Positions 3,134 through 57,536 of a stretch of DNA of 64,000 bases are shown in pieces. How positions within the stretch are numbered: position 1 is the stretch's first letter; the number at the start of each line of letters is the position of its first letter. The stretch comes from Patescibacteria group bacterium (GTDB taxonomy: Bacteria; Patescibacteriota; Minisyncoccia; Phycocordibacterales; Phycocordibacteraceae). Location: the NCBI GenBank assembly GCA_019752595.1, contig JAIELV010000001.1, positions 120,486 to 184,485 on the forward strand. Reading direction: 5' to 3'. A program made the translations under genes and the position numbers. The notes beneath the pieces are model-generated. The model worked only from the letters and a program-made list of their open reading frames with translations. It had not been told where the DNA came from and did no database searches.

Positions 3134-3240
3134 CTACCCGCGGAGCATTTAAGGAAAATACATCGCCCTCTTTAGGGCGTTTTGTATTTTCTTAAATGCG
3201 AACGCGGGCAAGCCTGTGCAAGTAACAGGCGCTCAAGCGG
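3134..3240. repeat. 107-bp inverted repeat, left copy; begins with a copy of the tRNA 3' end (ctacccgcggagca)
   Basis: Reverse-complement of 5869..5977 with 2 mismatches, determined by direct alignment. Confidence 0.85.
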
Positions 3241-5868: not shown

Positions 5869-5977
5869 CCGCTTGAGCGCCTGTTGCTTGCACAGGCTTT
5901 CCCGCGTTCGCATTTAAGAAAATACAAAACGCCCTAAAGAGGGCGATGTATTTTCCTTAAATGCTCCGCGGGTAGGA
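5869..5977. repeat. 107-bp inverted repeat, right copy (tRNA 3' end plus its 3' flank including a hairpin)
   Basis: Pairs with 3134..3240; contains the tRNA acceptor 3' strand plus terminator-like gccctaaagagggc. Confidence 0.85.
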
Positions 5978-21725: not shown

Positions 21726-22130
21726 ATGTCTGAGAATCGAACTCGCGCACTTCTCTCGGCATCGCTTCTTTTTGGTGTTTCGGCCTGCGCAACGTCTCCT
21801 AACCACTCCGAAGCAGTACTCGATGCGTATTACGCTCGGGTAACGGAACGCAGAGCGTTCGTTGCTGGGTACACTCGTACACTCGCGCTGTCTGATTTAC
21901 TTGAAGTTGGTGAGTGCCAGACTATGGATTCCGTTCCTGTTATATCTGCCGAACCTCCACGCGTTGGTCCAACACTCCGACAAAGATTTAGAGCCGTACG
22001 GCTTTCCGCAGTTGAAACGCAGGCAGCATATACGCACTATCGCTATTTGTGTGCTCTAGGTGAGGGGGAACTTTCTCGTACGCGTATACCAATTCCATCA
22101 GAATCAGATCCAGAGCGTGACCCCGAATAG
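21726..22130 (+). CDS. Hypothetical secreted/lipoprotein-like protein
   Basis: 134 aa with signal peptide and Cys near the cleavage site. Confidence 0.4.
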   Translation: MSENRTRALLSASLLFGVSACATSPNHSEAVLDAYYARVTERRAFVAGYTRTLALSDLLEVGECQTMDSVPVISAEPPRVGPTLRQRFRAVRLSAVETQAAYTHYRYLCALGEGELSRTRIPIPSESDPERDPE

Positions 22131-22164
22131 CACGCTGTTCATGAGGCTCTGTAAACGGCCGAGT

Positions 22165-22198
22165 TTCCGTCTGTGATAACTGATATGATATATCATAT
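22165..22198. promoter_or_regulatory. Perfect 34-nt palindrome tgataactgatatgata|tatcatatcagttatca
   Basis: Shares the core CTGATATGATATATCATATCAG with 57403..57440. Confidence 0.5.
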
Positions 22199-22215
22199 CA
22201 GTTATCACTTGTACT

Positions 22216-22257
22216 AATACTTACTAAGAGTATCTGTTTAAGAGTATTTATAAGAGT
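22216..22257 (+). repeat. Three direct repeats of TAAGAGTAT (iteron-like) upstream of the promoter
   Basis: taagagtatctgtt / taagagtattta / taagagtatctgtg. Confidence 0.5.
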
Positions 22258-22276
22258 ATCTGTGCGCATAGAGGGA

Positions 22277-22304
22277 TTGACTTTTTGTTTTTAGGGTCTA
22301 CTAT
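22277..22304 (+). promoter_or_regulatory. Sigma70-like promoter TTGACT-N16-TACTAT
   Basis: Near-consensus -35 and -10 with 16-nt spacer. Confidence 0.5.
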
Positions 22305-22314
22305 GAAAAAAGTT

Positions 22315-22545
22315 GAATAAAAGCGCCAGAGTAAGGTATCCCGCCTTACGAAGCTGCAGGTCGGAAGTCGAAAGACCAAAACCTGACGGAAAGGAACCGT
22401 AAAAACAGCCTAAAGTGTGTCATCCGAAAGGAAGGAGCACTGAGAAGCCTCAGAGACACGCCGGTAAGGCGTTTTCTTTTTAGAAGGCTATAGCAGGGTG
22501 GTACCACGAGAAACCGCTCGTCCCTGTGTTTCGACGTCGAATCGG
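22315..22545 (+). promoter_or_regulatory. Structured leader RNA with a T-box-like antiterminator (AGGGUGGUACC bulge) preceded by a stem-III-like hairpin
   Basis: 22493..22527: CAGGG-UGGUACC-ACGAG(AAACCG)CUCGU-CCCUG reproduces the T-box helix A1 / 7-nt bulge / helix A2 geometry and the AGGGUGGNACCGCG consensus (12/14); hairpin acgccggtaaggcgu plus U-run precedes it. Confidence 0.45.
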
Positions 22546-22565
22546 AAACGGCAAATTTAACTCGT

Positions 22566-22841
22566 ATGTGGGAAAGAAGTATCCTAGAGCGAGGCACAGT
22601 ACAACGAACGCGGGCATATCTAAATTCACGATATGACCTAAATGCTTTGTATCGTTCTCGCCTCTCAAAACTAAGCACCCTTGCATCGTGGGCTCTGAGG
22701 GAGCATGGTGAGTCTTCGAAAATATTTGTAGACACAACAAAAGCTATAGCTTCACTTATCGCCAAGCAAAGAAGAGCAGATAAAGAAATAACAAAAGTAC
22801 AAGGGAAATTACTAGAAAGACAGAGTGGTGAAAAATATTAA
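22566..22841 (+). CDS. Hypothetical protein (atypical codon usage)
   Basis: 91 aa; weak RBS; rich in cta/ata/aga codons; could be non-coding. Confidence 0.25.
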   Translation: MWERSILERGTVQRTRAYLNSRYDLNALYRSRLSKLSTLASWALREHGESSKIFVDTTKAIASLIAKQRRADKEITKVQGKLLERQSGEKY

Positions 22842-22853
22842 TGTCATTACATT

Positions 22854-23105
22854 ATGATTAACGGAAAAAACCTTGAGAAGGTTCGTTGGTCCAGCACAGG
22901 ATTGCGCCTTCGCAAATTCCTTGAAGTTGATACAACTCTCGAGCAAGAAATAAGGGAGGCGGAATTGGGCGGTGCTCGTGCAGTTCTCTTACGTGGTCAC
23001 CATTCAGATGTGGCGGGAGCGAATAGAGCACACGTCACCGAACTGTATGCCAAACGAAATCGGGTAGCCGCCATCGTCGAGCGGTTACGTTCACGTGTAG
23101 GTTAA
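22854..23105 (+). CDS. Hypothetical protein
   Basis: 83-aa ORF with plausible codon usage. Confidence 0.35.
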   Translation: MINGKNLEKVRWSSTGLRLRKFLEVDTTLEQEIREAELGGARAVLLRGHHSDVAGANRAHVTELYAKRNRVAAIVERLRSRVG

Positions 23106-23141: not shown

Positions 23142-23381
23142 ATGGGAGAAATAAAAAAAGAAAAAACAGACCGTGTCATGGGTCGTGGCGACTTTGATGA
23201 CGATATTGAGGCTGCCGAAATGGCCGCACGCATCGAGGCAATGACCGAAGAAGAAGCAAAACAGTGGCTTTTGACGGAAGGAGGTTATACCGAAACACAG
23301 CTGAATGATGCACTTGCACGAACGGATGGTTTCATTTTCGATCTTATTTACAAAGACGACCCTAATAAAGGAAATGCATAA
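23142..23381 (+). CDS. Hypothetical acidic protein
   Basis: 79 aa; AT-rich leader. Confidence 0.35.
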   Translation: MGEIKKEKTDRVMGRGDFDDDIEAAEMAARIEAMTEEEAKQWLLTEGGYTETQLNDALARTDGFIFDLIYKDDPNKGNA

Positions 23382-23382
23382 C

Positions 23383-23712
23383 ATGACCACATTTCAAGAT
23401 TTTGAAAAAATCGAAATTCGCGTCGGTACAGTCGTCGCTGTAAGCGACTTTCCTGAAGCGAGGAAACCTGCATACAAGCTGGATATAGACCTCGGTCCTC
23501 TCGGGGTAAAAAGGTCGAGCGCTCAAATCACGCACCTGTATTCAAAAGACGAATTGATTGGAAAACGGGTCATCTGCGTTACCAATATAGGCATCCGAAA
23601 AATAGGGTCCTTTGAATCGGAGGTTTTGACGACAGGGTTTTACCGCGAAGACGGTTCTGTTGTTTTGGCCGTACCAGACAAAGATATACCAAACGGCGCT
23701 CGTTTGGGCTGA
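23383..23712 (+). CDS. csaA: CsaA/Trbp111-like tRNA-binding domain protein
   Basis: FEKIEIRVGTVVAVSDFPEARKPAYKLDIDLGP...RVICVTNI matches the OB-fold tRNA-binding (MetRS C-terminal-like) domain. Confidence 0.7.
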   Translation: MTTFQDFEKIEIRVGTVVAVSDFPEARKPAYKLDIDLGPLGVKRSSAQITHLYSKDELIGKRVICVTNIGIRKIGSFESEVLTTGFYREDGSVVLAVPDKDIPNGARLG

Positions 23713-23749
23713 TTGCCCTTACAAGACGAAGCCTTATAATGAGCACACT

Positions 23750-25006
23750 ATGCGCCAGTCTCACTTATTCACAAAAACACGGAAAGAATCTCCAAAAGAT
23801 GAGATTTCGCAGAATGCGCAACTTCTGATTCGTGGCGGATACATCCACAAAGAAATGGCGGGTGCATACGACTTGCTTCCGCTCGGACTTCGCGTATTTG
23901 AAAAGATAAAACAAATTATTCGCGAAGAAATGAACGCGCTCGGTGGTCAGGAAGTTTCTTTTACCGCGCTTCAAGATCCTGAGTTGTGGAAAGAAACGAA
24001 TCGCTGGAAAGGAGAAGCGGTTGATGAAGTCTGGTTTAAAACAGAATTGAACGGAGGTACGCAGGTCGGCTTGGGTTTTACACATGAAGAGCCGATGACG
24101 CGCGTGATGAAAAATCATATCTCGTCATACCGCGATTTACCAAGGTACACGTATCAGTTTCAAACGAAGTTTCGAAATGAGCTTCGTGCGAAATCTGGCA
24201 TCATGCGCGGACGCGAGTTTTTGATGAAAGATTTTTACTCGTTTAATCGCTCGGATGCGGAGCTTGAGGTCTTTTACGAAGAAGCAGGTGCAGCCTATCT
24301 GAATGTGTTTCGAAGGGTCGGTATCGGAGATTTTACCTACTTAACCTTTGCCTCAGGCGGTGTGTTTTCAAAGTTCAGTCACGAGTTTCAGTGCGTCTCG
24401 ACCGCAGGCGAGGACACCATATATATAGATACGGATAAGCGCATTGCCGTGAATTATGAGGTCATGAGTGACGATATTCTCCGTGATTTAGGTATTTCTA
24501 AGGAGGCATTGGTAGAGGCGAAAGCAATTGAGGTTGGAAACATTTTTAAACTCGGCACCAGATTCTCAGAACCGCTCGGCTTAACCTTTAAAGACGAAGA
24601 CGGAGTCGATAAGCCAGTGGTCATGGGTTCGTACGGTATCGGCATTGGACGCCTCATGGGTACGATTGTTGAAGTGTTGTGCGATGAAAAGGGAATTGTG
24701 TGGCCTGAATCGGTTGCACCATTTACGATTCATTTGGTTGAACTATCGCAAGGGGATGAAAAAATTCGCGCGTATGCCGACAAACTGTATGAAGATTTAA
24801 CCGTAGCTGGCATTGAAGTTTTGTACGATGATCGCGATATGCGCGCGGGAGAAAAATTTGCCGACTCTGATTTGCTGGGTATTCCGCACCGTGTGGTTGT
24901 CGGGAAGACAACAACTGATTCTGCAATTGAGGTCGTGCGTAGGAAGAACGGGAATAAAGGGGTTGTGACGAGAGAAAAACTGCTTGCGGGAATCTATCAT
25001 GCTTAG
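23750..25006 (+). CDS. proS: Prolyl-tRNA synthetase
   Basis: Class II motifs (FRNELRAKSGIMRGREFLMKDFYSF; GSYGIGIGRL), anticodon-binding C-terminal domain; start at MRQSH. Confidence 0.85.
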   Translation: MRQSHLFTKTRKESPKDEISQNAQLLIRGGYIHKEMAGAYDLLPLGLRVFEKIKQIIREEMNALGGQEVSFTALQDPELWKETNRWKGEAVDEVWFKTELNGGTQVGLGFTHEEPMTRVMKNHISSYRDLPRYTYQFQTKFRNELRAKSGIMRGREFLMKDFYSFNRSDAELEVFYEEAGAAYLNVFRRVGIGDFTYLTFASGGVFSKFSHEFQCVSTAGEDTIYIDTDKRIAVNYEVMSDDILRDLGISKEALVEAKAIEVGNIFKLGTRFSEPLGLTFKDEDGVDKPVVMGSYGIGIGRLMGTIVEVLCDEKGIVWPESVAPFTIHLVELSQGDEKIRAYADKLYEDLTVAGIEVLYDDRDMRAGEKFADSDLLGIPHRVVVGKTTTDSAIEVVRRKNGNKGVVTREKLLAGIYHA

Positions 25007-29276: not shown

Positions 29277-29555
29277 ATGTCAGAAACGAGCGTTGAAAGA
29301 GAAGGTTCACTCTTAAAGTCTATTCGCGAATGGGTTCCCTTTATTGGGGCTCGTAACGGCGATGAGCTTGAAGTAGTGTACGGACATCTCAAGAGTCCGA
29401 AGGTCGCCACTGGAGTGTGCGAGATCAGAGTCAGATCTGCAAAAAATGCGGACAGTATTACGGGCCTCATGGTTGGAGAAACTCTTTTCACCCCGCACGT
29501 ACGGATTCAATCTATGCGGATAATTTCTCGAAAAGAAACGGGAACCGATATCTGA
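29277..29555 (+). CDS. Hypothetical protein
   Basis: 92-aa ORF between greA and lysK. Confidence 0.35.
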   Translation: MSETSVEREGSLLKSIREWVPFIGARNGDELEVVYGHLKSPKVATGVCEIRVRSAKNADSITGLMVGETLFTPHVRIQSMRIISRKETGTDI

Positions 29556-29567
29556 TACGATACACAG

Positions 29568-57320: not shown

Positions 57321-57402
57321 GTAATCCAGAAGCCAGGTCGTTACAGGTGATTGCAGGTGATTCAGGTGGTGCAGATAGATACAAAGGTAGATAAAAACCG
57401 CA

Positions 57403-57440
57403 CCCAATAGCTGATATGATATATCATATCAGCTATTGGG
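57403..57440. promoter_or_regulatory. 38-nt perfect palindrome sharing core CTGATATGATATATCATATCAG with 22165..22198
   Basis: cccaatagctgatatgatatatcatatcagctattggg; preceded by tandem caggtgatt repeats at 57343..57372. Confidence 0.5.
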
Positions 57441-57536
57441 TAATGGAAGAAGAGTTGATACGTGGTTAGTAAGGTCAGTAAAAAGTGGCGAGTGAAAAAG
57501 CGGAAAACTACCCAAAAATGGGGCGTGGTATAGTTT

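Follow-up and report, generated by a model that had tools for sequence, protein, structure and literature searches.

A predicted miniaturised T-box riboswitch for tRNA-Pro with an ultrashort Stem I in Patescibacteria

Introduction

T-box riboswitches serve as a model for how RNA recognises tRNA and are also under study as targets for antibiotics. According to the current view, a transcriptional T-box binds fast enough only with a long Stem I docked on the tRNA elbow, and an ultrashort Stem I marks the slow, reversible translational switches of actinobacterial ileS (PMC7583486). In these ileS T-boxes, described from Mycobacterium and Nocardia (structures 6UFG and 6UFM; Sherwood et al. 2015; reviewed in PMC7583486), a short Stem I presents the specifier codon in its apical loop and depends on Stem II and a pseudoknot. 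TBDB applied its short-Stem-I model to Actinobacteria only, and a full-text search found no paper on T-boxes in Patescibacteria, the candidate phyla radiation (CPR), Parcubacteria or Saccharibacteria, an absence that holds for the searched literature only. Here we analyse a window of 64,000 nucleotides (nt) from a Patescibacteria group bacterium (GenBank assembly GCA_019752595.1, contig JAIELV010000001.1, positions 120,486 to 184,485 of the forward strand; all coordinates below are those of the window). We predict from the sequence, with a probability of about 70%, that positions 22311–22551 are the 5′ leader of an mRNA transcribed from its own promoter and form a miniaturised T-box riboswitch for tRNA-Pro. 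That the leader is a T-box is almost certain and that it is specific for proline is very likely, and we lean slightly towards the view that it still switches in its host genome.

The closest described architecture to that of the leader is the ultrashort-Stem-I T-box of actinobacterial ileS. Both have a truncated Stem I, a specifier in the apical loop and insertions in the discriminator region, and in the leader, as in the ileS T-boxes, a kink-turn (K-turn), Stem II and the IIA/B pseudoknot presumably replace the elbow contact. The two differ in output and in range. The ileS T-boxes are translational, acting by sequestration of the Shine–Dalgarno (SD) sequence, and are essentially limited to ileS, whereas the miniature family to which the leader belongs uses proline, arginine and tryptophan codons and mostly carries strong intrinsic terminators; the leader itself has no SD to sequester, and its Stem II is smaller still.

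Canonical transcriptional T-boxes (Rfam family RF00230; for example Bacillus subtilis tyrS and glyQS) share with the leader a T-box sequence with a 7-nt bulge between helices A1 and A2, a specifier followed by a purine, the bulge motif UGGN and purine-rich sequence ahead of A1, and apparently also a GA motif below Stem I, a Stem II and a IIA/B pseudoknot with an F-box-like CCGU. With most relatives of the leader they also share an intrinsic terminator that overlaps the A1 3′ strand and codon-matched biosynthesis or aminoacyl-tRNA synthetase genes; proline-specific canonical leaders are those of proBA and proI. The leader departs from the canonical form in lacking the AG bulge, distal loop and elbow platform, in presenting its codon in a 7-nt apical loop, in having a shortened Stem II without an S-turn, and in carrying an extra hairpin (IIIa) as well as a GC hairpin and U-run in the Stem III region. 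The terminator of its clade is without a U-tract, its host belongs to the Patescibacteria, and its score is under half the Rfam threshold. The glyQS-type T-boxes are also a case of natural domain reduction, in which the long Stem I is retained and Stem II dropped; the miniature family does the reverse. Both use a G/C-rich codon (GGC in glyQS, CCC in the leader), so a strong codon–anticodon helix is expected.

A full-length T-box match below threshold

The T-box model RF00230 matches positions 22317–22528 on the + strand over its full length with 42.8 bits (E = 5e-8 in a local scan of 801 nt, E = 4e-6 across the whole 64-kb window), and at E-value thresholds it is the sole non-tRNA Rfam match in the window. 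The Rfam gathering score for this family is 93 bits, and a window scan at default gathering thresholds returns one tRNA (tRNA-Glu) only and no T-box. The score is low because 76 model positions of the distal Stem I give way to 11 nt; the Rfam alignment also places a long insertion within the Stem III region of the leader. A permissive Rfam scan of 22100–22900 listed rli52, tsr26, Corona_pk3 and microRNAs, all of them at chance level (E ≥ 0.2) and on the palindrome upstream of the leader.

A preliminary description of this DNA, made from its letters and open reading frames (ORFs), had proposed an atypical T-box here, had suggested an Infernal search with RF00230 and a search for a specifier in a Stem I fold, and had noted that assignment of the RNA to another family would speak against the proposal. 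RF00230 turned out to be the only family that matches, at full length although under its gathering score, no other family claims the region, and a Stem I with a specifier is present. The word atypical has likewise proved apt, given the ultrashort Stem I and the absence of a U-tract terminator. We regard as effectively refuted the idea that the leader is not a T-box, whether through chance resemblance or membership of another RNA family. The sub-threshold score speaks for it, whereas the sole full-model match, the covarying helices and the agreement of codon and genes for three amino acids, set out below, speak against it. The leader appears to hold all core T-box elements but the long distal Stem I.

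Decoding module and antiterminator

The decoding module of the leader consists of a base helix P0, a GA-motif or K-turn-like internal loop, an ultrashort Stem I, a Stem II and a Stem IIA with the pseudoknot IIB (Table 1). Stem I has 6 base pairs (bp) and a 7-nt loop in all relatives; it is 100% paired among them, and two of its positions are changed on both sides. In the Rfam alignment the leader is without the extended Stem I whose AG bulge and distal loop serve as the tRNA-elbow platform. At the base of Stem I, 22329–30 on the 5′ side face G22350–A22351 on the 3′ side as a tandem GA/GA, beside the covarying P0. This candidate GA motif is off consensus in the leader (AGA for UGA, GAA for GGAG), and relatives span the range from canonical UGA/GGAG to GA/AA. 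The specifier that the preliminary description had left to be identified would be the CCC followed by a purine in the apical loop UAUCCCG, a register in which the codon tracks the downstream genes across relatives.

Stem II is short in the leader and is reduced further, to a hairpin of 4–5 bp with a purine loop, in some relatives. Its outer helix is 100% paired, with four of five pairs changed on both sides across relatives. The partners of pseudoknot IIB also covary, as AGG/CCU, GGC/GCC, GGG/CCC, GGAC/GUCU, AGGAA/UUCCU, GUCA/UGAC, AGUC/GACU and UUCU/AGAA, a comparison made by eye because the register shifts among sequences. Taken together in an alignment of 11 sequences, P0, Stem I, Stem II and IIA are paired in 97.9% of cells and seven pairs are changed on both sides. 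The covariation score of the module was reached by none of 500 shuffles, and slid controls pair in at most 38%.

The antiterminator folds as drawn, with −12.7 kcal/mol. Helix A1 (GCAGGG/CCCUGU, with inner CAGGG/CCCUG at 22494–98/22522–26) and helix A2 (ACGAG/CUCGU at 22506–10/22517–21, loop AAACCG) flank the 7-nt bulge UGGUACC at 22499–22505, and a purine-rich approach precedes A1. The preliminary description had placed this A1–bulge–A2 fold correctly and had rightly seen a strong match to the T-box consensus, which it undercounted: the T-box sequence AGGGUGGUACCACG at 22495–22508 agrees with AGGGUGGNACCGCG in 13 of 14 positions (12 of the 13 specified), not 12 of 14, and the sole mismatch, A22506, is offset by U22521. 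Per-sequence extraction recovered the same architecture in 20 relatives with both helices covarying (A1 as CAGGG/CCCUG, AAGGG/CCCUU, GAGGG/CCCUC or CAAGG/CCUUG; A2 as ACGAG/CUCGU, GCGAG/CUCGC, GCCUU/AAGGC or CCUUC/GAAGG). The bulge UGGU is predicted to pair with ACCA-3′ of a tRNA whose discriminator is A73, the base that bacterial tRNA-Pro generally carries. Among members of the family with a UGG codon, five of six carry the bulge UGGC, which fits G73 of tRNA-Trp.

Codon and gene content across relatives

A genome scan for prolyl-tRNA synthetase (ProRS) yielded 80 loci, almost all of which carry the label Patescibacteria, Paceibacterota or Parcubacteria, and the sequence GGGUGGUACC stands upstream of proS in nine of them. 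The covariance model R1, derived from the decoding module, gives the window a score of 93.6 bits with a single copy there and finds copies in 10 of the 80 proS loci and more in metagenomic contigs. A pattern scan of metagenomes together with R1 brought about 20 further members, and ProRS homologues led to three close relatives (L201, L203 and L205). The relatives found in Patescibacteria genomes and metagenomes number about 30. None of 18 relatives tested reaches the RF00230 threshold, and neither does the canonical-looking T-box of locus L106. Members from genome assemblies are labelled Patescibacteria; those with arginine or tryptophan codons or the bulge UGGG lie on metagenomic contigs without a taxonomic label.

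The proposed specifier corresponds to loop positions 4–6, which read CCC in the window and in L001, L002, L003, L012, L173, L124 and L177, CCA in L006–L009 and L051, and CCG in L159 and L093. All these proline-type members have G at position 7, which is a purine across the family. Such a proline codon precedes proA-proC-proB-(csaA)-proS (L003, L008), proB-proA (L124, L177), an ornithine cyclodeaminase gene followed by csaA and proS (L012), a proC-like gene with csaA and proS (L093), or small ORFs and proS (L173); it also precedes proA-proC-proB in L004, whose own T-box bulge is degenerate. CGC occurs before argH/argG (L114, L161) and also in L153, and UGG stands before trpE-G-D (L108) or trpS (L145), both leaders having the bulge UGGC. 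As far as sequence comparison can tell, the loop codon thus tracks the amino acid of the downstream genes, which is classical T-box logic.

Several relatives have features of their own. L012 (2290–3593) combines a bulge variant, AGAGUGGUACC, and a compensating CUCU with the ornithine cyclodeaminase-like gene, pointing to a different route of proline synthesis under the same control. The members with UGG include L103, L108, L122, L145 and L187, and the contig of the last, a tryptophan-type short T-box, also carries a group I intron (RF00028, 68.8 bits; L187 1611–1815, − strand). L117 and L178 form a group with the bulge UGGG, and their downstream genes are not interpretable.

Table 1. Positions of the leader elements and neighbouring features in the window
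Feature	Position	Strand	Sequence or description	Basis
Perfect palindrome	22173–22208		GTGATAACTGATATGATA and TATCATATCAGTTATCAC, 36 nt (18 + 18)	−21.3 kcal/mol, z = −7.5
Three direct repeats	22225–22263	+	TAAGAGTAT(C/T)T(G/A)T, copies at 22225, 22239 and 22251, just upstream of −35	
Leader promoter	22277–22304	+	−35 TTGACT 22277–82, 16-nt spacer, −10 TACTAT 22299–304	9 of 12 consensus matches
Base helix P0	22322–24/22353–55	+	AGC/GCU	Rfam alignment, covariation
GA-motif/K-turn-like internal loop	22325–30/22350–52	+	GCCAGA/GAA	Rfam alignment
Ultrashort Stem I	22331–36/22344–49	+	GUAAGG/CCUUAC, 6 bp, enclosed by P0	Rfam alignment, covariation
Apical specifier loop	22337–22343	+	UAUCCCG	Loop codon comparison across relatives
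Putative specifier (Pro)	22340–42	+	CCC, then purine G22343	Loop register
Stem II (short)	22357–22385	+	CAGGU/ACCUG, internal loop CGGAA/CAAA, tip GUC-GAAA-GAC, purine-rich	Rfam alignment
Stem IIA	22386–22411	+	ACGG/CCGU, loop AAAGGAA, F-box-like CCGUAAAAA	Rfam alignment
Pseudoknot IIB	22392–94/22409–11	+	AGG/CCU	Rfam alignment
Linker hairpin IIIa	22415–22440	+	GUG-UGUC...GGAG-CAC, non-canonical UGU/GAG core, GAAA tip loop	Conserved in relatives
Stem III region	22440–22492	+	Two hairpins, U-run, purine-rich linker	Folding, position
Small hairpin	22440–53	+	CUGAG-AAGC-CUCAG	Stem III region
GC hairpin	22458–72	+	ACGCC-GGUAA-GGCGU	Stem III region
U-run	22473–81	+	UUUCUUUUU	Directly 3′ of GC hairpin
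Antiterminator (T-box discriminator)	22493–22527	+	A1, bulge, A2	Rfam alignment, folding
Competitor (terminator-position) hairpin	22524–22551	+	CUGU.UUUCGA-CGUCGAA-UCGGAA-ACGG	Overlaps last nucleotides of A1 3′ strand
ORF1	22566–22841	+	91 amino acids (aa), basic protein, first gene after leader	Homologues at same position in L001, L002
ORF2	22854–23105	+	83 aa, orphan, coding status uncertain	No counterpart in related loci
ORF3	23142–23381	+	79 aa, orphan, coding status uncertain	No counterpart in related loci
CsaA/Trbp111-like gene	23383–23712	+	Free-standing tRNA-binding protein, 109 aa	PF01588, E = 4e-13; start set by homologues
proS promoter	23713–40	+	TTGCCC-16-TATAAT	Ends 9 nt before ATG
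proS	23750–25006	+	ProRS, 418 aa, short bacterial type	ATG at 23750, leaderless

Expression platform

Downstream of the bulge, 20 of the 30 bulge-bearing members have a strong hairpin of −12 to −34 kcal/mol (mostly −24 to −34), which shares sequence with the A1 3′ strand and ends in a U-run. Such intrinsic terminators give these relatives, with their ultrashort Stem I, the look of transcriptional T-boxes, and their control would be classic attenuation. No canonical U-tract terminator was found after the antiterminator of the leader, in line with the preliminary description, which had seen no canonical terminator partner. In its place the window has a competitor hairpin (−5.4 kcal/mol, z = 0) followed by CAAAUUUAAC rather than a U-tract. 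The same architecture, composed of a CC from the A1 strand, a small bulge, 5–6 bp, GG and an A/U-rich tail, is found again in L001, L002, L201, L203 and L205, where the sequences of the helix differ, and for this recurrence we take it to be selected, not accidental. The competitor helices, like those of Stem III, are documented by per-sequence extraction, the MAFFT columns being out of register there. A pairing of Stem II with the region after the antiterminator, seen as an inverted repeat, was set aside because it is not conserved in L001.

The leader might be a relic with an intact sensor, its platform having decayed in the clade, so that it is constitutively on or attenuated by the upstream hairpin described below and gives no response to proline charging. 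The U-tract terminator is absent in the window and in L001, L002, L006, L009, L012, L201 and L205, the competitor does not exceed shuffles in stability and is surpassed by the antiterminator by 7 kcal/mol; the degenerate bulge of L004 is evidence that decay does happen, proS has its own promoter, and no proline biosynthesis genes lie within the window. Against these points, the sensor helices and the invariant bulge are kept among members whose ProRS are 70–95% identical, with compensatory changes that include the competitor, which would be unexpected for a dead switch. We judge a relic unlikely.

The preliminary description had raised the option of a translational T-box, which the analysis does not support. 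In such a T-box, as in that of actinobacterial ileS, the 3′ strand of the antiterminator would sequester the ORF1 ribosome-binding site when uncharged tRNA is lacking. The precedent is real, as the ultrashort Stem I has so far been tied to translational T-boxes (PMC7583486), the window has no U-tract terminator, and the ORF1 start codon lies just 15 nt past the competitor hairpin. Yet no SD-like sequence precedes ORF1, and the genome is SD-poor, such a motif being present at just 6 of the 40 long ORFs of the window; many genes seem to be leaderless. The predicted accessibility of the ORF1 start region is practically equal with the antiterminator free or blocked (0.53 versus 0.54; relatives similar). 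Occlusion of the ORF1 start by the freed 5′ half of the T-box, through a second CUCGU at 22561–65 that could pair with ACGAG of A2, was considered and rejected; this complementarity, the only one to the start region noticed by eye, is missing in L001. Most family members, moreover, have unmistakable intrinsic terminators. Translational control is very improbable here.

Linker and upstream hairpin

Between the pseudoknot and Stem III lies the linker hairpin IIIa, with the consensus GYG-UGUC...GGAG-CRC and a fold z of −2.6. Its outer helix covaries among relatives (GUG/CAC, GCG/CGC, GAG/CUC, GCA/UGC and CUG/CAG). Further downstream the GC hairpin of the Stem III region is followed by the U-run, a pair that the preliminary description had correctly recognised ahead of the antiterminator. 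It resembles an intrinsic terminator or pause site, is similar to the host genome's own terminator-like hairpins, and stands upstream of the T-box bulge. A GC hairpin directly followed by U5–7 and ending 19–30 nt before the bulge is found in 23 of 30 family members, and in several of them the U-run is not explicable by pairing. The distribution is complementary: members without a downstream terminator all have the upstream GC hairpin, and members without the GC hairpin all have a strong downstream terminator. The bulge is the sensor of charging, and as the hairpin lies upstream of it the sensor cannot control the hairpin during transcription.

These observations bear on the idea that the GC hairpin and U-run (22458–81) are the operative stop in the clade, with tRNA bound to the decoding module, perhaps contacting the GGUA loop, suppressing termination and the bulge being secondary. 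The complementary distribution and the likeness to the genome's own hairpins fit this idea, as does the hairpin loop, which reads GGUA(A) throughout the proS clade. In L004 (444–760) the decoding module, IIIa, GC hairpin and U-run are kept, the T-box bulge has a degenerate sequence (GAUGGUAUCC), the start of proA is about 45 nt past the U-run and the GC-hairpin loop reads UGGUA; this locus is either a decaying or a rearranged T-box. In L003 (569–640) and L051 (3154–3230) a different U-run hairpin, AAAAAUUCC-UAAG-GGAAUUUUU, lies over the 3′ strand of pseudoknot IIB and uses its nucleotides, so that pseudoknot and hairpin would be mutually exclusive. However, the family as a whole shares no alternative pairing by which the hairpin would be disrupted, GUGUGUC/GACACGC being limited to the clade; conservation of the GGUA loop does not extend beyond the proline clade; and the perfect conservation of the downstream bulge speaks for charging still being read at that site. 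An upstream stop of this kind is quite unlikely. Under the T-box reading that we prefer, the upstream hairpin could instead be a pause site or a leaky first stop. The short, slow-binding Stem I, which has no elbow platform, would thereby gain time to capture tRNA ahead of the synthesis of the bulge, a tentative inference with the odds against it.

Proposed mechanism

The steps that follow carry the known mechanism of T-boxes over to the leader. Its codon CCC at 22340–42 would pair with the tRNA-Pro anticodon (GGG, possibly others reading CCC), and Stem II and the pseudoknot would clamp the codon–anticodon duplex in place of an elbow-docking platform. When the tRNA is uncharged, its free ACCA-3′ end would pair with UGGU at 22499–502 and lock the antiterminator; prolyl-tRNA would be unable to pair, which would free the A1 3′ strand for the competitor hairpin. 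The most likely output is more transcriptional read-through into ORF1, ORF2, ORF3 and the CsaA-like gene, and read-through into proS would add to transcription from its constitutive leaderless promoter. In the window's clade the switch is probably of low gain, or in need of a factor or of an upstream pause, because the competitor there is weak and without a U-tract.

Several findings weigh against a working proline switch. The RF00230 score of the leader lies far under the gathering score, and its Stem II lacks the canonical AGUA/GAA S-turn in the Rfam alignment. No tRNA-Pro gene of the lineage was found for a comparison of anticodon and discriminator, since the window holds tRNA-Glu(CUC) only and the one tRNA-Pro among the loci retrieved stands on an unrelated contig. 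A terminator-like hairpin is placed upstream of the sensing bulge. The antiterminator is far more stable than the competitor (−12.7 against −5.4 kcal/mol), so that on thermodynamics alone the leader would be on by default. The first gene that would be regulated, ORF1, has no assigned function, and proS has a conserved promoter of its own, which makes the tie between leader and proS loose.

Promoter and upstream repeats

The near-consensus promoter named in the preliminary description is borne out by its positional conservation. The transcription start is inferred at about 22311, and a TTGAC-type −35 with a TAnnnT −10 occurs at the same distance from the leader start AGUUGAAUAAAAGC in nine of nine related loci inspected; L201 and L205 also have a TTGACT −35 at that place.

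The three direct repeats of TAAGAGTAT upstream of it are present as first described, and three copies were reached by none of 100 shuffles. The palindrome is likewise present and perfect, with a length of 36 nt rather than the 34 nt first given. Both had been described as belonging to the T-box unit, which the comparison does not support: palindrome and repeats are absent from all 200 loci searched, and also from L201, whose ProRS is 95% identical and whose leader is near-identical. They belong to the host genome and not to the riboswitch; both are real but strain-specific. The TAAGAGTAT repeats are possible regulator or UP-like sites.

A second perfect palindrome, of 40 nt (CCCAATAGCTGATATGATA and TATCATATCAGCTATTGGG), lies at 57401–57442 and shares a 22-nt core, CTGATATGATATATCATATCAG, with the one at 22173–22208. 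Both are intergenic and follow + strand genes, the copy at 57401–57442 has a U-rich tail on the − strand, and a half-site-like match occurs at 29547–29562. The shared-core palindrome could be a genome-specific operator, terminator or small repeat element. Elsewhere in the window a 16-nt GC hairpin, CGCCCTCTTTAGGGCG, is found at 3164–3179 and 5930–5945, in opposite orientation and about 2.8 kb apart, each copy terminator-like on both strands.

Downstream genes

The order of genes after the leader is that of the preliminary description, with three small ORFs, a gene for a tRNA-binding protein (PF01588) and proS. ORF1 is 31–32% identical to its homologues in L002 and L001, and has no Pfam match and no database homologue. 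A search for remnants of proA, proB or proC in ORF1–3 gave a best tblastn E of 0.2 and was discarded, as was the grouping of the small ORFs after the T-box into one family, a profile comparison of those of the window, L001 and L002 with those of L006, L007, L009 and L051 giving a probability of 1.5%. Small Cys-rich ORFs (CxxC...CxxC) directly follow the T-box in L201 (about 2283–2455, not a called gene), L173 (64 aa) and L122 (86 aa).

The csaA-like gene sits between the proline T-box or pro genes and proS in L006–L009, L012, L051, L093 and L159. Its product may be a trans-acting tRNA-binding partner of ProRS, which here is a short enzyme without the editing insertion. A −10 box lies 7–10 nt before the proS ATG in most relatives, with or without a T-box, and as proS has this promoter of its own the leader can only add to proS expression. 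Many genes of the window have a TATAAT-like box that ends 7–10 nt before the ATG (for example 16568, 18075, 44378, 50998 on the − strand, 52433 and 59896, and for proS 23735–23752), which suggests widespread leaderless mRNAs in the host genome.

Discussion

The leader and its roughly 30 relatives suggest a picture that runs counter to the view that ties an ultrashort Stem I to translational switches. In this family strong intrinsic terminators go together with an ultrashort Stem I and a reduced Stem II, and the leaders stand before genes for at least proline, arginine and tryptophan. A more far-reaching proposal, which we consider doubtful, is that the miniature T-boxes of Patescibacteria are an undescribed class that acts on transcription without an elbow platform, in which a pause hairpin about 20–25 nt before the bulge would compensate for the missing docking. 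In the terminator-less clade of the window the upstream hairpin would then be the main gate, with two checkpoints in sequence, the identity of the tRNA at the hairpin and its charging at the bulge.

If the reading as a T-box switch is true, the family would supply a minimal natural tRNA-sensing module of about 145–210 nt for structural and engineering work, and a programmed pause replacing elbow docking would become testable. It would also show that annotation in the style of Rfam and TBDB has a blind spot, as the curated threshold is passed by none of the leaders. The Patescibacteria that carry these leaders have very small genomes, and the finding would mean that some such reduced organisms retain regulated biosynthesis of proline, arginine and tryptophan.

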